DNA of 64,000 bases, from the sequence record ON184125. One strand, given 5' to 3'. How positions within the stretch are numbered: the first letter of the stretch is position 1; the number at the start of each line of letters is the position of its first letter. The DNA comes from Escherichia phage PC3. The position numbers were made by a program, and so were the translations under genes. Below are positions 3,382 through 58,562 of this stretch, piece after piece. The notes beneath the pieces are model-generated. The model did no database searches. It was given only the letters and a program-made list of their open reading frames with translations, and had not been told where the DNA came from.

Positions 3382-3996
3382 ATGACGATGACAACGTTGA
3401 AGGCCATGGCCTTGTCCGTGACCTTTACCATTGCCAGCGGGAATGTGCACGCTTCCCAAAGTACCACCCAATGTGATTATAATTTCTCCGAGCAACAACT
3501 TAATACGATGGCAACCGCCTATCACGTAGGCAAGACACAAGATCTTGGCTACACTCTGGCCGCCATATCTTGGCGTGAGAGCCGCGCTGGCGAAGATGTA
3601 GTGTCAATGCGATACGGCCTCAAGGCGGCCAACATGGGAGCCTTTCAGAACAAGGTGAAGACAGTTGGTGATCGCGAAGGTTGTAAGAATCGCAAGTGCT
3701 ATGCCAATGTCGCTATAAAGTTGCTGACCGACCAAGAATATGCCGCGCAAGCCGCCCTCGATGAGATGCAGTTCTGGCTGACCTATCACAATCAGAATAT
3801 CCGCAAATCCCTCTCCTCTTACAATGCTGGCTTCGCCCGTAATCCTGCATCGAACGCTTATGCTGCCGACGTCGTGAAGAAAGCTAAATATCTTCAGAAA
3901 TGTGTGTCCTTCGAAGGCCGGACCATCTCCGAGGTAGATCCTCAGGTGATCGCCATGAACAAGCACACAATAGAGAAACTGAAGAGGACAAGATAA
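3382..3996 (+). CDS. secreted lytic transglycosylase-like protein (SLT-domain-like) with signal peptide
   Basis: 204 aa; N-terminal signal-peptide-like segment (MTMTTLKAMALSVTFTIASGNVHA); SWRESRAG (catalytic Glu-Ser-like), MGAFQ, SYNAG motifs reminiscent of lytic transglycosylases; preceded by hairpin and AGGAAC...ATCATG initiation region. Confidence 0.55.
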   Translation: MTMTTLKAMALSVTFTIASGNVHASQSTTQCDYNFSEQQLNTMATAYHVGKTQDLGYTLAAISWRESRAGEDVVSMRYGLKAANMGAFQNKVKTVGDREGCKNRKCYANVAIKLLTDQEYAAQAALDEMQFWLTYHNQNIRKSLSSYNAGFARNPASNAYAADVVKKAKYLQKCVSFEGRTISEVDPQVIAMNKHTIEKLKRTR

Positions 3997-4634: not shown

Positions 4635-4646
4635 AAATAATTCAAT

Positions 4647-4670
4647 AAAAGGGGCAAACGCCCCTTTACT
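4647..4670 (+). terminator. rho-independent terminator
   Basis: AAAAGGGGC-aaac-GCCCCTTT hairpin followed by T-rich tract, directly after the stop at 4634. Confidence 0.7.
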
Positions 4671-4741
4671 TCTTCAATATCCTTCCCTATACTTCATTCC
4701 ATAAGCAGTACGACACCAACTTGAATAGCAGGAACTATATC

Positions 4742-5077
4742 ATGACACAACTCAAGAACTTCACTGCCGATGACATGTTTGCCTTCCAGGGTGCTGAGCA
4801 CTTTGCTGACGGCTCTGTACCTCGCATCTACTACTTCTCCGACGAAGAAATGGAAGATTTCTTCTCCCTGATGGAAAAGGACTACGAACCAGACGACTTC
4901 GTTTATATCATCCATCACGCTGAAGGACTGACATTGGGTTGGACGGCCAACAACGAACCAGAAGAAGTAAACTTTCCTGAAGGTATCATGTCAGAGCGCG
5001 TCGAATATCTACTGGAAGCTCTGGACCCCCACACCCTCCCGCTCTGGGCGATGTCTGTAGCCCAAGTTCAAAAATAA
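4742..5077 (+). CDS. hypothetical acidic protein
   Basis: 112 aa (MTQLKNFTADDMFAFQ...); start set at ATG with AGGAAC 8 nt upstream; track ORF 4721 starts 7 codons earlier. Confidence 0.6.
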   Translation: MTQLKNFTADDMFAFQGAEHFADGSVPRIYYFSDEEMEDFFSLMEKDYEPDDFVYIIHHAEGLTLGWTANNEPEEVNFPEGIMSERVEYLLEALDPHTLPLWAMSVAQVQK

Positions 5078-5080
5078 GAT

Positions 5081-5107
5081 AAGGGGGCTGACGCTCCCTT
5101 TTGGTTT
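5081..5107 (+). terminator. rho-independent terminator
   Basis: GGGGGCTGACGCTCCC stem (one G-U pair) followed by TTTTGGTTT. Confidence 0.6.
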
Positions 5108-5152: not shown

Positions 5153-7582
5153 ATGTCAAAGCTAAGTTTCCTCCAGTTCATGCAGGAAAGAGATCAGTTG
5201 GACGAAGCGTTCAACTCCGCTCCGTATGAGCTGACCATGGGTAAGAAGAACGCAGGCGATGTGTTCTTCACCTTCATCGACGAAGATGAAAAGGAATACC
5301 GTATTCAGTTCTATACCCCTCAGGGGCTGGGCAAGAGCGTTCGTCAGGTTTTCATCGGCCAGAAGCGCGGCTCCGTCTATCCTGACGCCATCGCTCGCTT
5401 CAAGAACCCAATGCGCGTTATCGCTTCCATGATCGAAGCGACCAAACAATTCATGGCGACTCCTCTGGGTAAGACCATCGATGGCTTTGCTGTCAACTTC
5501 TCTAAGAAAGCGCTGGATCGCGGTATGACCCTGATTCCTAAGATCATCCGCCAGTCCGGCCTGAAACAGAAGCTGAATGTCATGGACCTGACCTACGCGC
5601 CTGTCCCCGACCGTGGTTATGTGTGGTTGGTCCGCAAGGGTAAAGATCCGGCTCAGGTATTCGACGGTCCGAAGATGCAGGGCATCACCTGGGATGATCC
5701 AGACAAGGTCGGTGACGTTCCTGAGCAGCCAGTTGTACCAGCAGGTTCGGACAGAAATAACCCAGCCAACATTGTCGGTTCTGGAACTGCTGTTATTGAT
5801 GCCAAACGACTTGGTGCTCGGGAAGTAAACGTGGAACGATTCAAAAACGGTGTTCGCATGCGTTCTCAAAACGGTGACGTCGACATCAGTATTTCCGACC
5901 CAGACTTTTCAAATGCAGCAAGTGCGACTGATGCTGCCACAGCCTCTGTTGTGGTCAAGAACGGGCGTTACGAAGGTGCCATCAATTCAAAGCGCAAGAT
6001 TGCTCGCATCTCGAACGAGCAGGGTACTGAATGGGATATCATCGGTGTCAACGGGGAAACCCTTGTCTCTATCAAGTTGAACAAAGTGTCTAAATCCGCA
6101 TCGGATTCGACCGAGAGTACAACCAGTGTTGATCAATTACGTGACAGCGGTTTCATCGCTCGTGTTCTGGGTATCATTGATACCCACGTTGGGCTGGACA
6201 CTTCTATTCTTCCTGGTGAGAACATCCGTCGTGTGGGCGCTGGTCGTTACACGACGGCAGGCGGGTTGGTTATCGTTGTCAACTTCACAAACGTCCTCGC
6301 TGGTTTCGTTCAATACTCAGTTTTCAGCGAAATTGCTGAAGAGAAGAGCGTGGCCAAAGGTAGCGCCCGTGACGTCGCCAATGCGGTAATTGCGTCCATC
6401 TTTGAGGTTGCCAAGACCCAGTACACTGGCGAATGGGAAATCGGAGCAGTGCAAACAAGCGCTCCATACCCTATCAAGGCCATCCGTCATTCTCAGGGCT
6501 GGGGATATGTAGAAACCGCAAACTGGACTCTGAAAGTGTCCGACGCTGTCCTGAATCGTGTGAAGCCAGGGAACACTGCTCTGCTGGAACTCATCAAAGA
6601 GCCTCCGCGTGGCAAGCACCCGCTGGAAATCATCCCAGAGAAGGGCGACAAGACCCTGATGCTGAAAGATCGTATTACCGGGGCCATCTATGGTTCTATC
6701 GACCTGAATGCCCAAGGCGCTGATCTGGTCAACTCTGGAACCCTGAATATACCAAGCAACGCCATGGTGTTTGGTGAGACTGTCAACGGTATGTCCATCA
6801 CTTGGTCTGGCGTCAATTTCCCGAAAACTGGGAAGTATGATGGTGCTGTATTGACCACGAATGTGACCTATTACTACGACAAAGGCAAAGTGGCGATCAC
6901 GCCTATTGTATCCAATAAAGGTCGTACCCTGAACAATCCGAAGACATATGAACTTACTTTGAAGAAAGATATTGTTCAGGCCGTGATCGATGAAATTTCT
7001 TCTAAAATGGAAATGATATCTCGGAATATACAAACTCTGAAAAGCACGTCGTATAATCCGAAACAAGTATTTTTGGACGACATTTCTGTTGACAACAACG
7101 GTTCAGTCCTTTGGCGCGGGTACGACATGGCGGATCGCCGCACTAATGAATTTATGTTGGGTATCCTGTCCAAAGAAACCGAGAGACTGGAGAAAGAGTC
7201 GGGTACTGCGAAGAAGACTGGTGCCGACCTTGCGGCATACGCCGACTCCATCCGCGACAACGCACCAAAAGGCCGCGACCTGGATTGGCAGATCTATGCA
7301 AGCCGTGATGGTCAGACTCTGAACGTGGACTGGGATATCACCTTCCGCCGCAACACAACTGAAGGGGCATATCGCGAGTTCAAATCTCAGATTGACCGCG
7401 CCAACCAGTACCTGCAGACTCTGTACCGGGATGCGAAGTCCAAGGGTTACAACCCGACTGAACCAAACCTGATGACTCTGGATAGCGCCCAGCAGTCTGA
7501 CCAGTGGGCACGAGACTACGGGGAAGGCGCATACAGCGAGTACGAGCAGTCCCTGGGTGGCAACATGCAGATTAAGATCTGA
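5153..7582 (+). CDS. large hypothetical protein (809 aa)
   Basis: Long uninterrupted ORF with SD AGGAG 8 nt upstream of ATG; flanked by terminators on both sides; no family recognised. Confidence 0.8.
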   Translation: MSKLSFLQFMQERDQLDEAFNSAPYELTMGKKNAGDVFFTFIDEDEKEYRIQFYTPQGLGKSVRQVFIGQKRGSVYPDAIARFKNPMRVIASMIEATKQFMATPLGKTIDGFAVNFSKKALDRGMTLIPKIIRQSGLKQKLNVMDLTYAPVPDRGYVWLVRKGKDPAQVFDGPKMQGITWDDPDKVGDVPEQPVVPAGSDRNNPANIVGSGTAVIDAKRLGAREVNVERFKNGVRMRSQNGDVDISISDPDFSNAASATDAATASVVVKNGRYEGAINSKRKIARISNEQGTEWDIIGVNGETLVSIKLNKVSKSASDSTESTTSVDQLRDSGFIARVLGIIDTHVGLDTSILPGENIRRVGAGRYTTAGGLVIVVNFTNVLAGFVQYSVFSEIAEEKSVAKGSARDVANAVIASIFEVAKTQYTGEWEIGAVQTSAPYPIKAIRHSQGWGYVETANWTLKVSDAVLNRVKPGNTALLELIKEPPRGKHPLEIIPEKGDKTLMLKDRITGAIYGSIDLNAQGADLVNSGTLNIPSNAMVFGETVNGMSITWSGVNFPKTGKYDGAVLTTNVTYYYDKGKVAITPIVSNKGRTLNNPKTYELTLKKDIVQAVIDEISSKMEMISRNIQTLKSTSYNPKQVFLDDISVDNNGSVLWRGYDMADRRTNEFMLGILSKETERLEKESGTAKKTGADLAAYADSIRDNAPKGRDLDWQIYASRDGQTLNVDWDITFRRNTTEGAYREFKSQIDRANQYLQTLYRDAKSKGYNPTEPNLMTLDSAQQSDQWARDYGEGAYSEYEQSLGGNMQIKI

Positions 7583-7983: not shown

Positions 7984-8014
7984 ATCCCCCTAAATACAGG
8001 GGGATTTCTTTTTC
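7984..8014 (+). terminator. rho-independent terminator
   Basis: ATCCCCC-taaataca-GGGGGAT hairpin followed by TTCTTTTT. Confidence 0.7.
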
Positions 8015-9976: not shown

Positions 9977-9990
9977 AAAAGACTTTACTC

Positions 9991-10015
9991 TTCAATAATG
10001 ATGCACTATTATAGT
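9991..10015 (+). promoter_or_regulatory. promoter-like element (TTCAATAA box + TATTAT/TATAGT -10-like)
   Basis: TTCAATAA at 9991 followed 11-13 nt later by TATTATAGT; member of recurring motif class (see findings). Confidence 0.45.
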
Positions 10016-10085
10016 TCACATAGGGCGGCAACACACCGCCGAATGAAAAGTGAAACGCACCAACTACATTATGAGGAATTACATC

Positions 10086-10574
10086 ATGGCTACTACCAAA
10101 ACTCTGATCACCAACGGCACCATCTCTTTCGAACTGAACACCGAAGTTGCTAAAGTTGAAATGTTCCGCATCGCTCAGGCAGCTGGCTTCACTGGTGGTA
10201 AAACTTCCTTCATGAACCTGCTGAACGGTAAAGTGAAATCGACAAACGGCTTCACCCTGGTAGAGCAGGTTGTGGTTGATAAAGCTGTGGTTGCTAAGAC
10301 TGCCGACAAAGTTGGTATGCTGAAAAACCTGGGTCACGACATCCACATTGTCGAAGCAAACACCGAAACTTACGGCACCATCGTAGTCGGTAAAGGTCGC
10401 ATCCAGCTGAACCCGCTGAACAACGGTTCCTTCTCTGTGATGGTCTTCCCTAAGAAAGGCTACGCAAACGAAGACATCGTGAAAGCGGCTGGTGGTGAAG
10501 CAAAAGCTCAGTACGTCAAAATGGGTAAACTGAGCGCCGACGCAGTTGAAGCTCTGGTGAGCAAACTGGCCTAA
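10086..10574 (+). CDS. hypothetical protein (162 aa) with strongly biased codon usage suggesting high expression
   Basis: MATTKTLITNGT...; near-exclusive use of CTG, GGT, AAC, GAA, ATC, CGC-type codons; own promoter-like box and terminators on both sides. Confidence 0.75.
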   Translation: MATTKTLITNGTISFELNTEVAKVEMFRIAQAAGFTGGKTSFMNLLNGKVKSTNGFTLVEQVVVDKAVVAKTADKVGMLKNLGHDIHIVEANTETYGTIVVGKGRIQLNPLNNGSFSVMVFPKKGYANEDIVKAAGGEAKAQYVKMGKLSADAVEALVSKLA

Positions 10575-11202: not shown

Positions 11203-11239
11203 TTAAATACCTCTGCATTCATTGTGGAGGTATTTTCTT

Positions 11240-12034
11240 ATGGCCATTCTAAAACTTGGCAACCGTGGCACTGAAGTGAAGGCACTCCAGGATAGCCTCA
11301 ACAAAATCGGCTTCACCCTCGTCGCTGATGGTATCTTTGGCAAGGCAACAGAGAACGCCGTCAAGACTGTTCAGGCGGGTGCGGGGCTTGTCATTGATGG
11401 TATCGTGGGTCCAAAGACCTCCTATGCTATTCGCAACGCCGGAGACGCCCATCAGGATCATCTAACTGAGTCAGACCTGATTGATGCTGCTAACGATCTG
11501 GGTGTTGACCTTGCCTCTGTCAAGGCGGTGAATCAGGTTGAGTCGCGCGGCACGGGCTTCACCAAGTCAGGTAAGATCAAGACATTATTTGAGCGCCACA
11601 TCATGTATAAGAAGCTGATGGCGAAGTTCGGACAGGCTCGGGCGAATGCCATGGGGCATATGTACCCGACGTTGGTCAACCCTTCTGCAGGCGGGTACAC
11701 GGGCGGCGACGCGGAGTTGGATCGACTTCATGCGGCCATCAACATCGATGAGGATTGTGCGTACGAGAGCGCCTCTTACGGTCTCTTCCAGATCATGGGA
11801 TTCAACTGCCAGGTCTGTGGATATGCCAACGCCAAGGAGATGTTCAACGACTTCCTGACAGGAGAACGTGCTCATTTGATGGCATTCGTGAAGTTCATCA
11901 AGGCCGACGCCAAGCTCTGGCAGGCTCTGAAGGACAAGAACTGGTCTGAATTTGCGCGGCGCTATAATGGTCCAGCGTATGCCAAGAACCAGTACGACAA
12001 GAAGCTCGCAGCAGCATACAAGAGTTTCAGTTAA
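11240..12034 (+). CDS. endolysin: N-terminal peptidoglycan-binding domain + DUF3380-type N-acetylmuramidase
   Basis: 264 aa from ATG (track ORF starts at TTG 11222); LKLGNRGTEVKALQDSLNKIGF...DGIFGKAT PG_binding_1-like repeat; C-terminal ESASYGLFQIMGFN motif typical of DUF3380 muramidases. Confidence 0.8.
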   Translation: MAILKLGNRGTEVKALQDSLNKIGFTLVADGIFGKATENAVKTVQAGAGLVIDGIVGPKTSYAIRNAGDAHQDHLTESDLIDAANDLGVDLASVKAVNQVESRGTGFTKSGKIKTLFERHIMYKKLMAKFGQARANAMGHMYPTLVNPSAGGYTGGDAELDRLHAAINIDEDCAYESASYGLFQIMGFNCQVCGYANAKEMFNDFLTGERAHLMAFVKFIKADAKLWQALKDKNWSEFARRYNGPAYAKNQYDKKLAAAYKSFS

Positions 12035-13005: not shown

Positions 13006-13031
13006 TTCAATCTACGAGGGCGGCGTATAAT
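13006..13031 (+). promoter_or_regulatory. promoter-like element TTCAAT-N14-TATAAT overlapping a GC hairpin
   Basis: CGCCGCC-ttcaatctacgag-GGCGGCG then TATAAT; TTCAAT lies in the loop. Confidence 0.45.
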
Positions 13032-17047: not shown

Positions 17048-17055
17048 CAAGCCAA

Positions 17056-17080
17056 AGCCCCTCAATGAGGGGCTTTACTT
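17056..17080 (+). terminator. rho-independent terminator
   Basis: AGCCCCTC-aat-GAGGGGCT followed by TTACTTTT. Confidence 0.7.
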
Positions 17081-17152
17081 TTGAAACACCCTCCACTATA
17101 CTTCCCAGTAATTCATTGGCATTCGCCACAAATTGAAAGCGGGAACTATATC

Positions 17153-17614
17153 ATGACAAACAAAGTACTCACCAACCCACTGCACAACTTCGGTTACATT
17201 CAACTCCCTCTGGTGATCGACACCCTGTACGCCGACGACAAAGAAGAGATCTGCTGGTCACCCACCGCACTGATTGAACGCGAAATCTTCAAGTCTGTTG
17301 TTGATGTCATGTTCCGTATCGGTCGCAATGGACCTCTGGTCTACCTCGGCAAGGTGACTGAGTTGAAGACAAGCCACAACGAACGCTTCCTTCGTATCGA
17401 TACAACGGGGTGCTCTCATCAGGACTTCAACACATTGCGCAATTATGTTCTGGTCAACCGCCCGGTCAGTCAACACCGCCCGTATCTGACTTCAATGCAC
17501 ATCGACAATTTCATCACCGACGTGCACCTCCGCGCCGAAACCCTCCATGAAGAGGAAACAGGCCGAGCTATCGACACAGTCTTAAATATGGTTGTGATCA
17601 CCCTGGCGGAGTAG
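17153..17614 (+). CDS. hypothetical protein
   Basis: 153 aa from ATG preceded by GGGAACTATATC (track ORF 17081 trimmed to Met 25). Confidence 0.6.
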   Translation: MTNKVLTNPLHNFGYIQLPLVIDTLYADDKEEICWSPTALIEREIFKSVVDVMFRIGRNGPLVYLGKVTELKTSHNERFLRIDTTGCSHQDFNTLRNYVLVNRPVSQHRPYLTSMHIDNFITDVHLRAETLHEEETGRAIDTVLNMVVITLAE

Positions 17615-17619
17615 TCCTC

Positions 17620-17970
17620 ATGCAAGATTACAAAGAGTTGAGAATGCAGCTGACAGTCCCCATACCAGACAAAGGTTTATACCAAAACCTGCATCATCTG
17701 ATGTCTGAAGGGCATATGCTGCCTTTGCGGTCTGAGGATGGATCTCAAATCGGTTATGCCACCAGTTGCGTGGTCTACGACAAACCAGGAGACGAAGAGC
17801 GCGGACAGGTCAGTGTGGGTTCCAGATTTGTGTTGAACAAGAAGCTGGAGGGATCAGTGGTTGACGTCAGGCCGATGATTATCCTCTACCAATTCAACGG
17901 TAAAGAGATGTTCAGGTTATTGAGCCACTTCATGTTAGTCGTGGCTCCGGCATTCAGGACGAAATTCTAA
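17620..17970 (+). CDS. hypothetical protein
   Basis: 116 aa, SD GGAG upstream. Confidence 0.5.
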   Translation: MQDYKELRMQLTVPIPDKGLYQNLHHLMSEGHMLPLRSEDGSQIGYATSCVVYDKPGDEERGQVSVGSRFVLNKKLEGSVVDVRPMIILYQFNGKEMFRLLSHFMLVVAPAFRTKF

Positions 17971-33871: not shown

Positions 33872-35296
33872 ATGTTACTCGAATCTGTCGTGCTTTCACA
33901 GTTGATTTACAATGAAGATTACCAAAGAAAGATCCTGCCGTACCTGAAAGCCGATTATTTTGACAACGAAGGCGAAAAGGTCATCTTTGGTCTGATTGAC
34001 AGTTATACCTCAGAGTACAATGCCCGCCCGTCTGTCGAAGCACTATCTATAATTCTTGAACGGACAAAGCTGAACGAATATGTGTTTGACCAGGCGGTAT
34101 CTGCCCTGGAGAACATCAACGACAACACCTTCAATGAAGAGTGGCTGGCGAAGGAAACCGAGGCTTGGGCGCGACAAAAGGCCGTACACAACGCAATCAA
34201 GACCGCCGTTAACATCTACGGTGACGAGAAGCGCAAGGACGAGATGAACAACATCCCGACCATGTTGCAGGAAGCCCTGGCTATCCGGTTTGATTCATAT
34301 CTCGGTCACATCTATTGGGAGATGGCGGCAGAGCAGTATGACCACATGAACTCCAACGAGGCCAAGATCCCGTTCGCAGTTGAGATCTTCAATAAGGCGA
34401 CACGTGGTGGCGTTGGTAAGAAGACACTGAACATCGTAACAGGTGCGATCAACGCAGGTAAGACCACAACGCTGATTGACCTGACCGCAGGGTACTCGGA
34501 GCAGGGGCTGAACGTCTTTGTCTTCACCCTTGAAGTGGCCGAGAACGTCTGGCGACACCGTCTTGATGCCCGTATCATGCGTCGCGACTTTGAGTCTTTA
34601 GAGAAACTCACAAGGCACGAGTATATTGCAACGATAGAGAAGCTCCGCAGTCGCCAAGATGGTGCGCCCAAGGGTGATATCGTCATCAAGGAATATCCTT
34701 CCGGTACTGGACACACAGGTTTATTCCGCCGCGATATCCTTGAGTACATCCAGGCAACTGGTCGTGCTCCTGATGTTATCGTTATTGACTATCTTGGCGA
34801 AGCTGCTTCCTCGCGCCTGCCTGCCCACCTGATGCAGAACACGAACGTCTATTACACGTCTGTGGCTCGTGAGTTTCGTGCGCTGGGATTTGAGTTTGAT
34901 GTCCCTGTATGGACTGGTATGCAGTTCAATCGTGAGAATCAGAATAGCACTGATGGTGGAATCAGTGATTTGGCAGATGCTATCGGTATTCCGAAGGTGG
35001 CCGACTTCATCATGGCATTCTATGCTCCTGACGAACTGGCGGCGGTCAAGAAAGCCCGAGCCTCAATACTCAAGAACCGTTATGCCAACAAGCAGAAGCT
35101 GAAATCATTCCTGTTTGGTATGGACCAAGACAAACAGATCCTGTTTGACCTGGACTGGAATGAAGTTAAGAAGGACCTGACTGAGGCTGAGGCCAAATAT
35201 GTCGAAAACGTACACATCAAACATGACCTCAACAAGTCCGGAGCTGCTGCCAGCGATGAGCAGAAAGCCCAAACGGTCAATAATTGGAAATTCTAG
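33872..35296 (+). CDS. replicative DNA helicase (T4 gp41/DnaB-like)
   Basis: 474 aa from Met 15 of track ORF; Walker A GAINAGKTT, DnaB-like layout. Confidence 0.85.
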   Translation: MLLESVVLSQLIYNEDYQRKILPYLKADYFDNEGEKVIFGLIDSYTSEYNARPSVEALSIILERTKLNEYVFDQAVSALENINDNTFNEEWLAKETEAWARQKAVHNAIKTAVNIYGDEKRKDEMNNIPTMLQEALAIRFDSYLGHIYWEMAAEQYDHMNSNEAKIPFAVEIFNKATRGGVGKKTLNIVTGAINAGKTTTLIDLTAGYSEQGLNVFVFTLEVAENVWRHRLDARIMRRDFESLEKLTRHEYIATIEKLRSRQDGAPKGDIVIKEYPSGTGHTGLFRRDILEYIQATGRAPDVIVIDYLGEAASSRLPAHLMQNTNVYYTSVAREFRALGFEFDVPVWTGMQFNRENQNSTDGGISDLADAIGIPKVADFIMAFYAPDELAAVKKARASILKNRYANKQKLKSFLFGMDQDKQILFDLDWNEVKKDLTEAEAKYVENVHIKHDLNKSGAAASDEQKAQTVNNWKF

Positions 35297-36152: not shown

Positions 36153-37346
36153 ATGAACGTCAAAACATTCAATATTCCGATCGACAATGAAGGGTTGGTA
36201 GTTGAGCGACTGAAGAAGCTCGAGCGCACTGCCGAAAGGTTGGGTGTTCCGTTTCCGACTGTGACTTATGGTGAACCCTTCAAAACCCACACCCGCGACT
36301 TCACTGGTGAGATCATTACTCACTGGTGGAAACCTGTTACTCTTGAAGGCGAAGGCATTGACCGCCCCGTCTCTTATGGTGGCTGGAAGATCATCGGTCA
36401 GTTCAATCACGAATATCCAAAGGTTATTCTTAACCGCCTGTCCGACAACATCAATCCTGACTTCATCCGTCGCTTCGAGACAGAGAACGTCTCTTGGTGT
36501 CAGCATTGCAATCTAGCCATCCGTCGCAAGAACACGTATGTGATTGAAAATGAGGAAACGCATACCCAGATGCTGATTGGTAGCACCTGTATGCATCATT
36601 ATGTACCTCATCAGAAATCGCTTGACGCGATTATGTCTTACTATCTGGGGATCCAAGAGTTCTTCATGCCAGAAGAGGACGACCCAGAGGGTATATATCG
36701 CGTCCAAAATGAGCGCTTCACCGATACCCACAGTTACCTGCGCGCATGCTTCCAGGTGATGCTGGCAGGCGTGGATATCAAGTCTGAACTGTTTGACAAA
36801 GTACTGGGCTATGTCCGGTCTCACCAGAAACCAAAAGCAGGTTCCGATGAAGAGTATTTCGTAAACAAGGCACACGAATACCGTGAAGATGCCGAGTCGG
36901 AAATGTACCATATGAAGCTCTTCATCAGTGCGCTGTCCGAATCTAATGAGTTCAATGTTCGCCTGAAACGCATGTGTGAACCCGGCTATCACCTCATCAA
37001 GGATAACAACACAGTCCGCTGGGGTGCCAAGAAGTATTACGATTACATCCATCGTCCTCGTACTGACCGCAAGGCGGAGAACAAATGGGTGGGTGAAGTC
37101 GGTGAAATGCTGGAAGTGCAAGTCAGGTTCGACAAGCGCACCTTTCTCTTCTCCAATGAATATGGTGATAGTTACCTGTTTACTTTCAAAACAGCAGAAG
37201 GCAATACAATTACCTGGAAGACCTCTTATATGGATACAGAGTTCTTGCAGGGCGATATGATCATCCGTGGTCGTGTCAAAGAACTGACTGAGTACAACGG
37301 CGTTAAACAAACTCAGGTCACTAGAGCCAAATTGAGGAAATTATGA
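36153..37346 (+). CDS. hypothetical protein (about 398 aa)
   Basis: Start at ATG with GAGG 5 nt upstream (alternative ATG 36141); contains WCQHCN...STCMHH Cys/His cluster. Confidence 0.7.
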   Translation: MNVKTFNIPIDNEGLVVERLKKLERTAERLGVPFPTVTYGEPFKTHTRDFTGEIITHWWKPVTLEGEGIDRPVSYGGWKIIGQFNHEYPKVILNRLSDNINPDFIRRFETENVSWCQHCNLAIRRKNTYVIENEETHTQMLIGSTCMHHYVPHQKSLDAIMSYYLGIQEFFMPEEDDPEGIYRVQNERFTDTHSYLRACFQVMLAGVDIKSELFDKVLGYVRSHQKPKAGSDEEYFVNKAHEYREDAESEMYHMKLFISALSESNEFNVRLKRMCEPGYHLIKDNNTVRWGAKKYYDYIHRPRTDRKAENKWVGEVGEMLEVQVRFDKRTFLFSNEYGDSYLFTFKTAEGNTITWKTSYMDTEFLQGDMIIRGRVKELTEYNGVKQTQVTRAKLRKL

Positions 37347-37672: not shown

Positions 37673-37894
37673 ATGCGCAAGTATTTCAATTGGCTGTTGG
37701 CAAGCCCCTGATGCGCTGAGATCCGTTGTCTAATCGATGCCATTGACGCCAAGGCTGTTTACAAAGCCCTCTCCCGACATCACAAGCGCTAGATTAATCG
37801 CACAGAGGCTCAGGCCGAAATTAAAAATCGTGAAGAAGTCCACAAGGCTCTGGGTTTCATAACAAATAATTCAATAAACTATTCACCCATATAA
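37673..37894 (+). pseudogene. possible decayed ORF: single reading frame interrupted by two in-frame stops
   Basis: Frame from ATG 37673 reads MRKYFNWLLASP-TGA-CAEIRCLIDAIDAKAVYKALSRHHKR-TAG-INRTEAQAEIKNREEVHKALGF... Confidence 0.25.
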
Positions 37895-37895
37895 T
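37870..37895 (+). promoter_or_regulatory. promoter-like element TTCAAT-N14-TATAAT
   Basis: TTCAATAAACTATTCACCCATATAAT about 28 nt upstream of ATG 37924. Confidence 0.5.
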
Positions 37896-43805: not shown

Positions 43806-45194
43806 TTAAACCTTCTGTGCTTGGCCTTTCTCAATCGCCTGAGGAGTAGTGGTGGAAGCAGTTGTCTGATTGGTCTGAGGTGGAAGCACCTGCTCCAGCA
43901 AACTGTCCTTGGCAATCTCAGCGATGCACTGATAATCTTTGGTCAGGCGGGAAATCTTGTGACGCACTTTGGTCACGATATAGTGGCCTGTCGATAGCTT
44001 ACTTAACTCTGCCAGCTTTTCGTTCTTCTTAGGACGGTTGGACTGGTCTTCGACGTAGAACACCTGACCGACGTTCAGGCGGTTATCACCAACGAGCAAC
44101 ACGCGCATCACAGTGCTGGCAAGACTGAAGTTGATAACACGACGAGCATAATCAATCTGCTCTGCTCCATCCGGCTGGGCTTCAATGTAACGGACGTTCT
44201 GACGATTGAATTCATCTGAGAACATCGGGAACGGATCAAGGTGAGCCGTCTCTGCAAACCACTCAGTATAGATGCGCTGTGTTGGGGTGACTGTCTTGGT
44301 CTCAAAGTCGTAGACGCGCTCGTTCACCGCCAGGACATCGCGGTAGTTTGCCATGAACTGGTCACGCGCCAGCTTCTTCTCTGCCTTGATGATCGTGCGC
44401 ATAAAGCGCTCAGAGTTGAAGTTGTTATCCTGCATGAGCGGCGCGTCCTGAGGATCACGGAACAACTTGTTCTGCTGAGCTAGTTCCTGCTTCTCTTCTG
44501 CTGTCAATGACTGGCTACCCTGGTTGAACAACGTCGTCAGGCTCTTGAAGTGATAGCCATTGAAGTCTTCATAGAAAACGAATGGCATGAACAATTCGTC
44601 ATAAGAACGGCTCGCCATATAATCAATAGATCGCAGCACAGGCCAGAGCGGGGTGGCGAACCGCTCTTGAATTCCATATGACGGGTCGATGTCTTCGAAC
44701 TTGGTGCGCGACTCCAGCTGATTGAAGATTGTCTTCGCCATGTCAGAATACGAACCGTCAAGACCGAGGGAGCATCGGATCATGCTGTCCTTATAGGCAT
44801 CGGTGGTCACCATGTGCAACCAGAATGCTTTCTTGGACGAGCTGTTGGACTCATCAGCTACGCGCCCAACACGCGCTACGCGCAGGGAGAGAGTGGTGTA
44901 TTCCGAGGCCGCCGGACTCTTGAATGACACCACAACTTCTTCACCACCCAAGATAGGCATTGTGTCAAGAATGTCCCACCCTTCTTTTATCAAGACATTG
45001 GCTGTAAGTGATGGAGATGACTTCCCTTCAAGACCCAGATCCTGGAAGACGTTGAACTCCTCAAACAACGCCGTCAGGTCATATGGCGTTGGTGATCCAC
45101 CCTGGGGTGTATGAGGGAGGATCGCCATATACTTCAGGTCAAATGTTGTTGACGGTGTTACAATACCGTCTTGGGTCTCTCTGTTTTCGATCAT
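43806..45194 (-). CDS. baseplate structural protein (family uncertain)
   Basis: 462 aa, translationally coupled within the baseplate/tape-measure cluster. Confidence 0.45.
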   Translation of the reverse strand: MIENRETQDGIVTPSTTFDLKYMAILPHTPQGGSPTPYDLTALFEEFNVFQDLGLEGKSSPSLTANVLIKEGWDILDTMPILGGEEVVVSFKSPAASEYTTLSLRVARVGRVADESNSSSKKAFWLHMVTTDAYKDSMIRCSLGLDGSYSDMAKTIFNQLESRTKFEDIDPSYGIQERFATPLWPVLRSIDYMASRSYDELFMPFVFYEDFNGYHFKSLTTLFNQGSQSLTAEEKQELAQQNKLFRDPQDAPLMQDNNFNSERFMRTIIKAEKKLARDQFMANYRDVLAVNERVYDFETKTVTPTQRIYTEWFAETAHLDPFPMFSDEFNRQNVRYIEAQPDGAEQIDYARRVINFSLASTVMRVLLVGDNRLNVGQVFYVEDQSNRPKKNEKLAELSKLSTGHYIVTKVRHKISRLTKDYQCIAEIAKDSLLEQVLPPQTNQTTASTTTPQAIEKGQAQKV

Positions 45195-54735: not shown

Positions 54736-56634
54736 TTATTCATCCTCAGTTTCAAATAGGCAAACATCGCTAAACCAGGTTTTGCGGTAATCGGCGGCCT
54801 CGTCACCGAAGCCATTCTTCAGTGACTGTTGATAGCCATCGTCCAGCGTGACCGTCGTAGTATACGCATCCAGGTTGTTTAGAATACGTTTGAAGTCTTC
54901 AGTGCTGTTACCACCCAGACCTTTCAGATATTTCTTCTTCGTGATCTTCTTGGCATCAGGCGTCTTCAGGAACTCCTCATACTCTGCGTTGTTCATGAAC
55001 TCATGCATCACCTTGCCACACCACACACGCATGTAAGGGGTGCGCAGGAGCTTCAGCCTGCCCTGACGGACGTACTCCGGCCAGTAGGTGCAATACAGGG
55101 TGATCAACAACCCACGGATGTGAATGCCGTCATCGTCCGCATCGGTAGCCACAACAGTCTGTGGGTAACGGGTGATGTCAAGGGGCTGGCCTGGTACTGC
55201 ACCGCCGTGGATCGTACACAGGTTCTTGAACTCTTCATTGTTCATCACCTTTGAGCGCGGGGCGTTCAGGCAGTTGATGAACTTACCACGAAGCGGGAAC
55301 AACCCGATCTTCTTGGTGTCGCGGGCGTTCAGGATAGGATTGGAGGCACTATCACCCTCTGTCAGCAACAGGGAGCATCCGCTGCGGTCACCACGGGCGG
55401 TCGCCGGGTAATACTTCTCAATCTCACGATAATCCCGCTTGCTGATGTCCTTCTTGGCCTTTTCAAACTCAGCATCATCCTGCTCATTGCGCAGGGAAGC
55501 CAGTTCTTTGCTCAGACCAGCCGTAACGAACTCAAGCGCCTTGCGGATCAGTTTATCGCTGGGCTTGTACGACGTACCGAACTGGCTTACAGGAGTGGTC
55601 ATGCGCTCCTTGGTCTGGCTGTCAAAGCGCGGGTTGTTGATGTCGGCGGCGATGAACAAGGACATGTGGTTCTTGATCATTGCTGGCTTCAGTTCGGTCT
55701 TGAACTTCTTCACCAGCTGGGGACGAATCGCTGCCACGATCTGGTCAGCAACATAATCAACGTGAGGACCACCGATGTGGGTGGCAATAGAGTTCACGTA
55801 TGATGCGTGCATGAACGTACCGGATGAAGGGGCTACAGCAACAGACCAATCCCCGGTTTCGTCAACAGCCGAACCAGCATGGAAGTAATCAACGAAGTGG
55901 CCAAAGCGGTCAATCCGGATTTGCTTCCCATTGAGAACAATCTTCAGGCGCGGGTTACACGCAGCCACTTCAAACGCGCGGCGATAGATCATCAGCAGGT
56001 TGTTCTGGTCAAGTCCTTTGACGCCCAGACGAGCATAGTCAGGGATCCAGGCGATGGATGTGCCGGGACTGTTCACGTTGCTGATGACTGGGTTAGATTT
56101 CTTGCTCATGTTGTCTTCAAACGTCTGAGTATAAGACTTCTTGCCGTCATTAGTCGTGACGCGGAACCATTTGGAGAACACGTTGACGAGGGACGCCCCT
56201 TCGCCATTCTGACCACCGGACTTCTGGTTGTTGTACTCTTCGTCTTCGTCGTTGAAGTTCGATCCTGCAAACAATTCTGAAAATAACATTTCTGGCAACC
56301 ACATACCAGATTCATGCTTGACCACAGGGATACCCCCGTTGTCAGCAACGATGATTTGACCGTTCATCGGGGAAACTGTGACGGTGATTTCCGTCAGGGA
56401 TTTACCCTCAGGGGTCTTGCTGTGGTCAACACAGTTGGTGATGATTTCATCAAACTGTTTGATAAGAGCGGGGTTATATTCAAAATTGTCTTTAAACACA
56501 ACTTTGTCTTTGCTGAGATCATATACCCAAGCCATCCCGACAGAAGAACGGATACTCCCTAGATGGCGCTCTGGGCGAAGGAGTATATGCTCGATGTGTG
56601 AGAGCTTTTTGTATTTTCTGTTTACATCAACCAT
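54736..56634 (-). CDS. DNA topoisomerase II large subunit (fused T4 gp39+gp60-like, GyrB-type ATPase)
   Basis: 632 aa; GHKL ATPase N-terminus, TOPRIM region, longer than T4 gp39 alone. Confidence 0.85.
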   Translation of the reverse strand: MVDVNRKYKKLSHIEHILLRPERHLGSIRSSVGMAWVYDLSKDKVVFKDNFEYNPALIKQFDEIITNCVDHSKTPEGKSLTEITVTVSPMNGQIIVADNGGIPVVKHESGMWLPEMLFSELFAGSNFNDEDEEYNNQKSGGQNGEGASLVNVFSKWFRVTTNDGKKSYTQTFEDNMSKKSNPVISNVNSPGTSIAWIPDYARLGVKGLDQNNLLMIYRRAFEVAACNPRLKIVLNGKQIRIDRFGHFVDYFHAGSAVDETGDWSVAVAPSSGTFMHASYVNSIATHIGGPHVDYVADQIVAAIRPQLVKKFKTELKPAMIKNHMSLFIAADINNPRFDSQTKERMTTPVSQFGTSYKPSDKLIRKALEFVTAGLSKELASLRNEQDDAEFEKAKKDISKRDYREIEKYYPATARGDRSGCSLLLTEGDSASNPILNARDTKKIGLFPLRGKFINCLNAPRSKVMNNEEFKNLCTIHGGAVPGQPLDITRYPQTVVATDADDDGIHIRGLLITLYCTYWPEYVRQGRLKLLRTPYMRVWCGKVMHEFMNNAEYEEFLKTPDAKKITKKKYLKGLGGNSTEDFKRILNNLDAYTTTVTLDDGYQQSLKNGFGDEAADYRKTWFSDVCLFETEDE

Positions 56635-58035: not shown

Positions 58036-58520
58036 TTCAAAGTTCCTTGTATGCGGAGACGATTAATGTGGGCAATGATATAGTCCATAGAGTTTTGAAA
58101 ACTGTATTTCCCGTTCTGAACATATGCATGGATCAGGGGTAGGCGACTGTACGCCAATCTGATTTTCAGACGTTCAGGCATTGTCTGGAGTTTCATACTA
58201 GTTGCAAATAGGATATCGCGCTTGAATTCTTCGGTGGACGGGTCCAGGACAATGACGCGAGAAGCCGCCAATCCCTGTCCATATTGCTTGGCCTCATAAC
58301 CGTCGAGCAGGCGCAGGTTGTCATCCCTATACTTCAGCCAATACCAGTACCCCTCCATGGAGTTGAACACACCATGTTCATGGGTAGTCATTGGATGATG
58401 GGTAAAATGCGAGAGGAAGCGCCCGAGTTCCGTCTGGCTCCGGCTATAGATGTTGAAGTGATTCTTACCCTCTGTTGCAGGGGTCATCTTGTTCTGTGGA
58501 ACGTTCATTAACAGCATCAT
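58032..58520 (-). CDS. hypothetical protein
   Basis: About 162 aa; start region ACTACATCATGATGCTGTTAATGAACGT parallels the start of 36153. Confidence 0.5.
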   Translation of the reverse strand: MMLLMNVPQNKMTPATEGKNHFNIYSRSQTELGRFLSHFTHHPMTTHEHGVFNSMEGYWYWLKYRDDNLRLLDGYEAKQYGQGLAASRVIVLDPSTEEFKRDILFATSMKLQTMPERLKIRLAYSRLPLIHAYVQNGKYSFQNSMDYIIAHINRLRIQGTLK

Positions 58521-58562
58521 GATGTAGTTTCTCAAATCAAAGTATTGCTGTGTGTAGTGAAA

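Follow-up and report, generated by a model that had tools for sequence, protein, structure and literature searches.

A Portable Cassette with a Putative Early Promoter and a Translation-Initiation Module, Probably Also a Recombination Joint, Ahead of Small Genes in Enterobacterial Ackermannviridae Phages

Introduction

Promoter-early stem-loop (PeSL) cassettes have been described in the T4-like phages RB49/phi1, T4/PST and KVP40/nt-1 (Arbiol et al. 2010, PMC2839356; Comeau et al. 2014, PMC4122927), and the crossovers of PeSLs were mapped to the interval from the -10 box to the ATG (PMC2839356; PMC4122927). The T4/PST form follows the promoter consensus TTTACW-N17-TAYWAT (PMC4122927), and the early promoters of T4 carry an A+T-rich upstream stretch (Hinton 2010, PMC2988021). 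For the ViI-like phages, the authors of the CBA120 study reported that they could not recognise early promoters by informatics and that these phages lack MotA, AsiA, Alt and ModA (PMC3184105), and the published Viunalikevirus motifs are TTCAAT[N14]TATAAT and CTAAATAcCcc (PMC7283392). These phages also hypermodify thymidine (PMC5889632), a modification that could change promoter recognition. The literature search returned no transcription-start, expression or mapped-promoter study for any Ackermannviridae phage, and no report of PeSL elements in this family was found with a PeSL query tied to T4 terms and family promoter queries that did not include PeSL.

In the window, which is the whole stretch of 64,000 nucleotides analysed here, the genes starting at 4742 and 17153 are preceded by two sites that are very likely copies of one portable composite regulatory cassette of the enterobacterial Ackermannviridae, in which an early sigma-70-type promoter, a translation start and a recombination joint would be combined. 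The cassette has the same parts as PeSL, namely an AT-rich stretch, a stem-loop, a sigma-70-like early promoter, a Shine-Dalgarno sequence and a start codon, and its promoter nearly equals the T4/PST form. All of the sequence-level traits of PeSL were observed: boxes spaced by about 17 nt, an adjoining stem-loop, an AT-rich upstream stretch with the Shine-Dalgarno sequence and start codon at the 3' end, several conserved copies per genome, coincidence with indel or replacement boundaries, and crossovers inside the cassette, again between the -10 box and the ATG. As with PeSL, the adjoining genes are small, of unknown function and variable between related phages. The differences from PeSL are that the host family is Ackermannviridae and not Straboviridae; that the full copies are fewer, with 4–5 per genome; that the leader and the initiation module are much more uniform; and that the module also occurs free-standing, after terminators or upstream stops, where it serves as the second repeat of a deletion.

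Sequences and Comparisons

The window corresponds to record positions 64001–128000 of PH4 (ON184126.1), an Escherichia phage of the Ackermannviridae, subfamily Aglimvirinae, and the only differing base is at window position 56266. The whole genomes of PH4 and of CBA120, which belongs to another subfamily, were reassembled for comparison, and the distribution of the cassette was taken from BLAST on the GenBank phage set together with these two whole genomes. IMG/VR was also scanned; the 15-mer TTTACTTCTTCAATA matched mostly unrelated contigs, a 26-nt leader pattern yielded 13 loci, and two protein-anchored scans yielded 6 and 5 loci. Coordinates refer to the window unless a record is named.

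Structure of the Two Copies

The following features were assigned at the two sites.

4648..4667, plus strand: terminator hairpin with a GGGGC/GCCCC core (-13.6 kcal/mol, z -4.1)
4665..4693, plus strand: candidate sigma-70-type promoter of copy 1, with boxes invariant in 29 cassette sequences
4701..4741, plus strand: predicted 5' leader of copy 1 (CATAAGCAGTACGACACCAAC...), about 41 nt, G-poor and unstructured
4721..4747, plus strand: translation-initiation module of copy 1, TTGAA-N5-GGAACTATATC-ATG-ACA
4742..5077, plus strand: cargo gene 'a', 111 aa, acidic product, phrog_9866
5081..5100, plus strand: terminator closing the one-gene transcription unit of the 4742 gene (-12.4 kcal/mol)
17054..17076, plus strand: terminator hairpin behind the glutaredoxin gene (-17.0 kcal/mol, z -3.9)
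17074..17102, plus strand: candidate promoter of copy 2 with a 17-nt spacer, conserved at this site in 227 phage records
17133..17158, plus strand: translation-initiation module of copy 2, TTGAA-N6-GGAACTATATC-ATG-ACA
17153..17614, plus strand: cargo gene, 153 aa product, phrog_3902

A preliminary description of this DNA had proposed that the two genes share a terminator, two conserved sequences and, as their proteins are unrelated, a leader conserved for regulation. Both sequences were recovered in place in both copies, and the terminators ahead of the two genes were likewise found as hairpins at 4648–4667 and 17054–17076 with z of about -4. The first hairpin, whose stem was also reported on the minus strand, was not matched in folding by any of 200 shuffles; it ends the upstream DUF7270 gene and its T-tail overlaps the -35 box, an overlap repeated between the T-tail of the second hairpin and the -35 box of copy 2, and the T-tail with its -35 box is itself conserved between the copies (CTTTACTT). 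The description needs one correction: the upstream one of the two sequences, CTATACTTC, is the -10 region of a candidate promoter, and the -35 box of this promoter sits in the terminator T-tail.

In copy 1, the -35 box TTTACT (4665–4670) is followed by a 17-nt spacer containing TTCAATAT and by the -10 box TATACT (4688–4693), with transcription predicted to start at about 4700–4701, and the module comprises TTGAA (4721–4725), then AGGAACTATATC, then the ATG at 4742. In copy 2, TTTACT lies at 17074–17079 and TATACT at 17097–17102, followed by TTGAA (17133–17137), GGGAACTATATC and the ATG at 17153. An AT-rich stretch (AAAATAATTCAATAAAA) is found upstream, and AGGAA-N8-ATG forms the 3' end. The encoded proteins are indeed unrelated (BLASTP E = 32) and fall into the separate PHROGs 9866 and 3902, and PDB sequence searches returned no function for either of them.

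Promoter Class and Neighbouring Control Motifs

The boxes TTTACT/TATACT match the E. coli consensus at 9 of 12 positions, and TATACT matches the -10 consensus of PeSL at five of six positions, a consensus that the TATAAT variant of the cassette fits fully. A generic sigma-70 scan was uninformative alone (20 sites against 19 expected). The narrower pattern TTTAC-N17-19-TAYWHT was found eight times in PH4 against 3.3 ± 1.6 in shuffled genomes, and all eight sites lie 23–74 nt upstream of a same-strand gene. From the boxes and their spacing we infer that the cassette carries a sigma-70-type promoter, which would be active and used early. Like the early promoters of T4 (PMC2988021), the cassette has an A+T-rich upstream region and a -35 box of the TTTAC type, with conserved positions extending likewise beyond the two hexamers and with a placement before small early genes. 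T4 early promoters are strong and served by the host polymerase, a role for which the cassette promoter is a candidate; unlike them, it has no TGn extended -10, its -10 box is often TATACT, and the phages that carry it have no homologs of Alt or ModA (PMC3184105).

The cassette shares with the published Viunalikevirus motifs the same genomes, the intergenic position and a TTCAAT(AA) box, which recurs in the cassette spacer. However, neither cassette contains TTCAAT[N14]TATAAT or CTAAATAcCcc at the stated spacing. The cassette differs in its -35 box TTTACT at 16–17 nt and in having no CTAAATA; its TTCAATA[AT] box is only 6–8 nt from the -10 box, unlike TTCAAT-N14-TATAAT; and its conserved leader and initiation module are not part of the published motifs. 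Copies of the published motifs lie elsewhere in the window, those of TTCAAT-N14-TATAAT at 13006–13031, 22892–22917 and 37870–37895, for example ahead of nrdA, and those of the second motif at 7990 and 11203. The element CTAAATA[CT] precedes tail-spike, sheath, tube and other structural genes and is therefore assigned to the late class.

Several side observations were made on these motifs. The genes at 11240 and 8029 each have a late-type (C/T)TAAATAC ahead of them (11203–11242 and 7990–8000, respectively). At 11205–11235, the late -10 box and the Shine-Dalgarno sequence of the gene form a 9-bp inverted repeat (AAATACCTC...GAGGTATTT), an arrangement observed also at PH4 record positions 36329 and 155292; the resulting hairpin would mask the ribosome site in read-through transcripts and not in those from the late promoter. 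In T4, genes e, soc and 49 have their ribosome sites masked by hairpins in read-through transcripts. Among the TTCAAT-N14-TATAAT sites, with which 24078–24093 is grouped, several -10 boxes are located in the loop of a GC hairpin, such as GGGGTATAATTACCCC upstream of gene 32, which suggests that terminator and promoter signals overlap there.

For the octamer TTCAATAA, PH4 has 32 occurrences where about 5.6 are expected, and most of them fall in intergenic control regions. Within the cassettes, TTCAATAA or TTCAATAT is found between the -35 and -10 boxes, and the box recurs ahead of the -35 box, in direct orientation in some copies and inverted in others; the positions noted in the window are 4641–4648 and 4673–4680. 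The octamer could be a protein-binding box.

It is possible, though unlikely, that the promoter needs a phage-modified polymerase or a phage activator and is of the middle class instead of an immediate-early sigma-70 promoter. The annotators of LIMEstone1 placed a 'putative middle promoter' here, and a factor binding TTCAATAA could act on the copies in the spacer and upstream of the -35 box, as the same octamer is part of TTCAAT-N14-TATAAT. However, the coordinates of the LIMEstone1 middle promoter do not match the conserved boxes (both this feature and the annotated 'terminator' coincide with neither the boxes nor the hairpin, and they were set aside); homologs of MotA and AsiA are absent from the ViI-like phages (PMC3184105); neither copy has a TGCTT box upstream of the -10 box; and the 17153 copy has no TTCAATAA, yet keeps its -35 and -10 boxes at unchanged spacing.

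Leader and Translation-Initiation Module

The predicted leader is in keeping with an open start region that is translated efficiently, and not with a structured RNA. The leader of copy 1 has a minimum free energy of -2.6 kcal/mol and folds worse than its shuffles (z +0.81), and the cassette leaders as a group are poor in G and do not fold better than shuffled sequences, with z ranging from +0.08 to +1.45.

The conserved initiation region would, in a rather doubtful alternative that the preliminary description had raised and that could coexist with the cassette explanation, be the operator of a translational repressor, either a RegA homolog or another RNA-binding protein, so that the cassette genes would form a post-transcriptional regulon. 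PH4 does encode a genuine RegA-family protein (PF01818, E = 2e-34, PH4 record 44612–45076). The operators of T4 RegA overlap the AUG, and T4 RegA selects A/U-rich motifs. The likeness to those operators lies in a conserved sequence over the start codon of several genes in a phage that encodes RegA. In addition, TAYAYY-ATG was counted in 15 PH4 genes against 3 expected when the columns are taken as independent, and the conservation of the module exceeds what a Shine-Dalgarno sequence alone would need. Against this, the module is of another sequence type, with its C-containing motif, and it is absent from the PH4 orthologs of the classical T4 RegA targets (45, 44, 62, regA, rIIB, 32 and 43); the promoter and terminator are conserved as well, beyond what an RNA operator explains; and repeat-mediated recombination accounts for the spread of identity. 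As a separate observation, the Vs.1-like gene at 3382–3996 is annotated as 'putative RegB' in the relatives JA15, ZQ1 and phiDP10.3, a label that looks unfounded, as Pfam gave only a borderline SLT (transglycosylase) match and PHROGs lists the family with unknown function.

Recombination explains how the identity spread but does not alone account for the strong conservation of the leader, so that an additional binding factor is possible. The uniform leader and module, or the TTCAATAA boxes, may with low probability be the site of a phage factor that switches the interchangeable accessory genes jointly, and this factor could be the RegA homolog acting on RNA or a DNA-binding protein that also uses the TTCAAT-N14-TATAAT promoters.

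That the leader is a structured RNA, such as a riboswitch, a thermosensor or a small-RNA target, is very improbable; it has the conservation itself in its favour and no further point, and it was rejected on the poor folding and on the outcome of the Rfam search, in which no cassette leader matched at family thresholds and the sole match at E <= 1 was weak (13.6 bits against a family threshold of 40 bits) and on the opposite strand.

Similarity of the Copies and Spread of the Cassette

The window contains two exact copies of the 15-mer GGAACTATATCATGA and no more. When up to three mismatches are allowed, it has nine matches against 1.9 expected, a count reached in none of 100 shuffles, and CTATACTTC with up to one mismatch has 18 matches against 7.6 expected. 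The pairwise alignment of the two leaders, a check that the preliminary description had proposed, was ranked against every other pairing of the 106-nt regions upstream of PH4 genes (18,145 pairs); its local score was 39 against a mean of 8.9 (sd 2.0), which placed it fifth. Of the four pairs that scored higher, three either involve other cassette copies or are tail-spike paralogs, and the same holds for the next two below. The idea that the likeness arose by chance between any two AT-rich leaders with a Shine-Dalgarno sequence has a negligible probability and is already refuted by the shuffles, the pair ranking and the spread of BLAST matches across genomes: the general start-site profile of PH4 does show a weak preference for T-A-T-A-T-C ahead of the ATG, but the pair lies about 15 sd over the mean of all upstream-region pairs, an exact 17-mer is common to both copies, and hundreds of genomes keep the same arrangement.

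The pair belongs to a multi-copy set conserved across the phage family, as judged from the searches below, which the preliminary description had missed. A profile built from the first copies matched PH4 strongly at five places, with E from 2e-18 to 4e-25, at record positions 23626 (gene 015), 35135, 68633 (window 4633), 81053 (window 17053) and 143499 (gene 182), and weaker relatives of the promoter were detected upstream of record 74086 (window 10086), 32010, 54128 and 47369. Two related features of the window are as follows.

9984..10088, plus strand: weaker promoter relative, TTTACT-N17-TATTAT with TTCAATAA in the spacer (profile E = 0.012)
58518..58531, minus strand: initiation module without promoter, TTTGATTTGAGAAACTACATC-ATG, at the gene start 58520

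The leader of the relative at 9984–10088 contains a hairpin, and GGAATTACATC-ATG stands at the gene starting at 10086. CBA120 has four full members and also copies of the lone initiation module. BLAST with an 88-nt core detected 658 places in 275 phage records, typically 2–4 per record, and all 275 records are ViI-like phages of Salmonella, Klebsiella, Escherichia, Dickeya, Shigella, Serratia and Enterobacter. The 17153-type cassette was found in 227 records.

When 29 distinct cassette sequences were aligned, conservation reached at least 90% in the columns of TTTACTT, TATA.TTC, TGAA, GGAA.TA and ATG, and the invariant elements (the -35 box, TATA[C/A]TTC, TGAA, the Shine-Dalgarno GGAA and the ATG) keep a fixed spacing. 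In five cassettes, 49–52 nt separate the -10 box from the ATG. These invariant elements at fixed spacing support the proposal that the shared leader is real and regulatory, a promoter plus a translation initiation region. Over the 83 nt ending at the ATG, PH4 and CBA120 are 85%, 93%, 98% and 100% identical at the four shared sites, whereas the adjoining upstream coding sequences are 73–89% identical, so that in this comparison the cassette appears more strongly conserved than the coding DNA beside it. The proteins of PH4 gene 015 and of the gene at the 4742 site in locus L138 are only 29% identical and are encoded at different genomic sites, and yet their cassettes are nearly identical by eye and their first codons also match. 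It was also observed that the TGA of the conserved TTGAA is the stop of the upstream gene in some tandem arrangements (PH4 record 34422); a role as a universal stop for upstream frames was set aside because its frame varies.

Recombination at the Cassette

Differential gene contents were observed behind the cassettes of PH4 and CBA120, and the homology of the two genomes stops at the start codon at all four shared cassettes. The 4742 gene is unrelated to orf112 of CBA120, and homology resumes at the downstream terminator (5081–5100); in CBA120, the 17153-type cassette is separated from the ortholog of the 17153 gene by an additional gene, orf096; orf176 of CBA120 is missing from PH4, where a cassette remnant without ATG is found at record 35135–35241; and gene 182 of PH4 is unrelated to orf234. 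The remnant is a full cassette in which the initiation module is cut off after GGAACTAT, the scar of a lost gene. The ribosome site of the 17153 gene is not the one found at its CBA120 ortholog, which begins with ATGTCC, not ATGACA; therefore the module and the first two codons of the PH4 gene came with the cassette. In this single genome pair, homology breaks at the start codon in 4 of the 15 module-bearing genes and in 8 of the 176 others (Fisher p = 0.0085, with small numbers), and the direction of an event, gain or loss, is not readable from two genomes.

At the 4742 site, at least five unrelated genes were found behind one cassette in the loci examined, with products beginning MTQLKNF, MKIILDAY, MTKTELN, MNAIKTD and MTTVTGF. 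Gene 'a' was found in 60 records and gene 'b' in 134, both in phages of Salmonella, Klebsiella and Escherichia. The promoter variants (TATACTTCATTCC/TATAATTCTAAAC) and the module variants (A[AT]AGCAGG/AA[CT]GAAGG) occur in all four combinations with each other, and each of them also in all four combinations with the gene alleles, and therefore crossovers inside the cassette are indicated.

A clean example is the comparison of PH4 with A221, in which one gene is lost between two repeats of 16–28 nt. A221 and CECAV_050, which are 97–98% identical to PH4, have the order cassette, gene b, TTTGAACCGAAGGAACTATATCATGACA, gene a. PH4 has no gene b, and exactly the segment between both module repeats is missing relative to A221; the two alignment blocks of PH4 to A221 overlap by 28 nt at the repeated module, and the deletion junction falls inside the repeated AGGAACTATATCATGA. 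As read from this junction, a direct-repeat deletion, or the reverse insertion, put the promoter cassette directly before the 4742 gene.

Other differences were observed near the cassette units. The gene at 17620–17970, which follows the 17153 gene, lacks a homolog at this place in CBA120; the CBA120 genome has about 340 bp of different, unannotated sequence there, representing another replacement beside a cassette unit. At about 5722–5745, inside the gene at 5180–7582, A221 is about 314 bp longer and many relatives lose similarity beyond this point; the product of 800 aa is described as a possible fusion in CBA120, and its homologs are virion proteins in LIMEstone1. From these differences in length and similarity, the protein therefore has a variable part.

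Discussion

The reading preferred here, that of a portable cassette, would work as follows. The parts would be arranged in the order A+T-rich stretch, terminator hairpin, promoter, unstructured leader of about 41 nt and translation-initiation module, where the putative promoter comprises the -35 box TTTACT in the terminator T-tail, a spacer of 16–17 nt and the -10 box TATA[C/A]T, and the module comprises TTGAA, 5–6 nt, (A)GGAA, CTATATC and the ATG, usually followed by AC. Host RNA polymerase most likely uses the cassette in the early phase of infection, and the leader, being open, would together with the module give efficient translation of any small gene behind it. Stretches of 20–110 nt that recur within and between genomes would be substrates for homologous recombination, presumably the pathway behind gene deletions, insertions and replacements whose junctions lie at the start codon, and recombination with such junctions would therefore account for one leader now standing on two unrelated genes. 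The identity of the two leaders would then stem from shared ancestry and from recombination of a portable cassette, a second point that the preliminary description had missed.

For the ViI-like phages, the cassette provides a testable candidate for an early-promoter consensus, TTTACTT-N16/17-TATA[C/A]T followed by a fixed leader. Ackermannviridae phages have been proposed for biocontrol and therapy, and the cassettes may offer a natural plug-in site with an expression signal for the engineering of such phages. The cassettes mark variable loci, which are likely seats of host-takeover or anti-defence genes, and the PeSL concept of regulatory signals that also act as recombination joints for swapping accessory genes would be extended from the T4-like phages to the Ackermannviridae.
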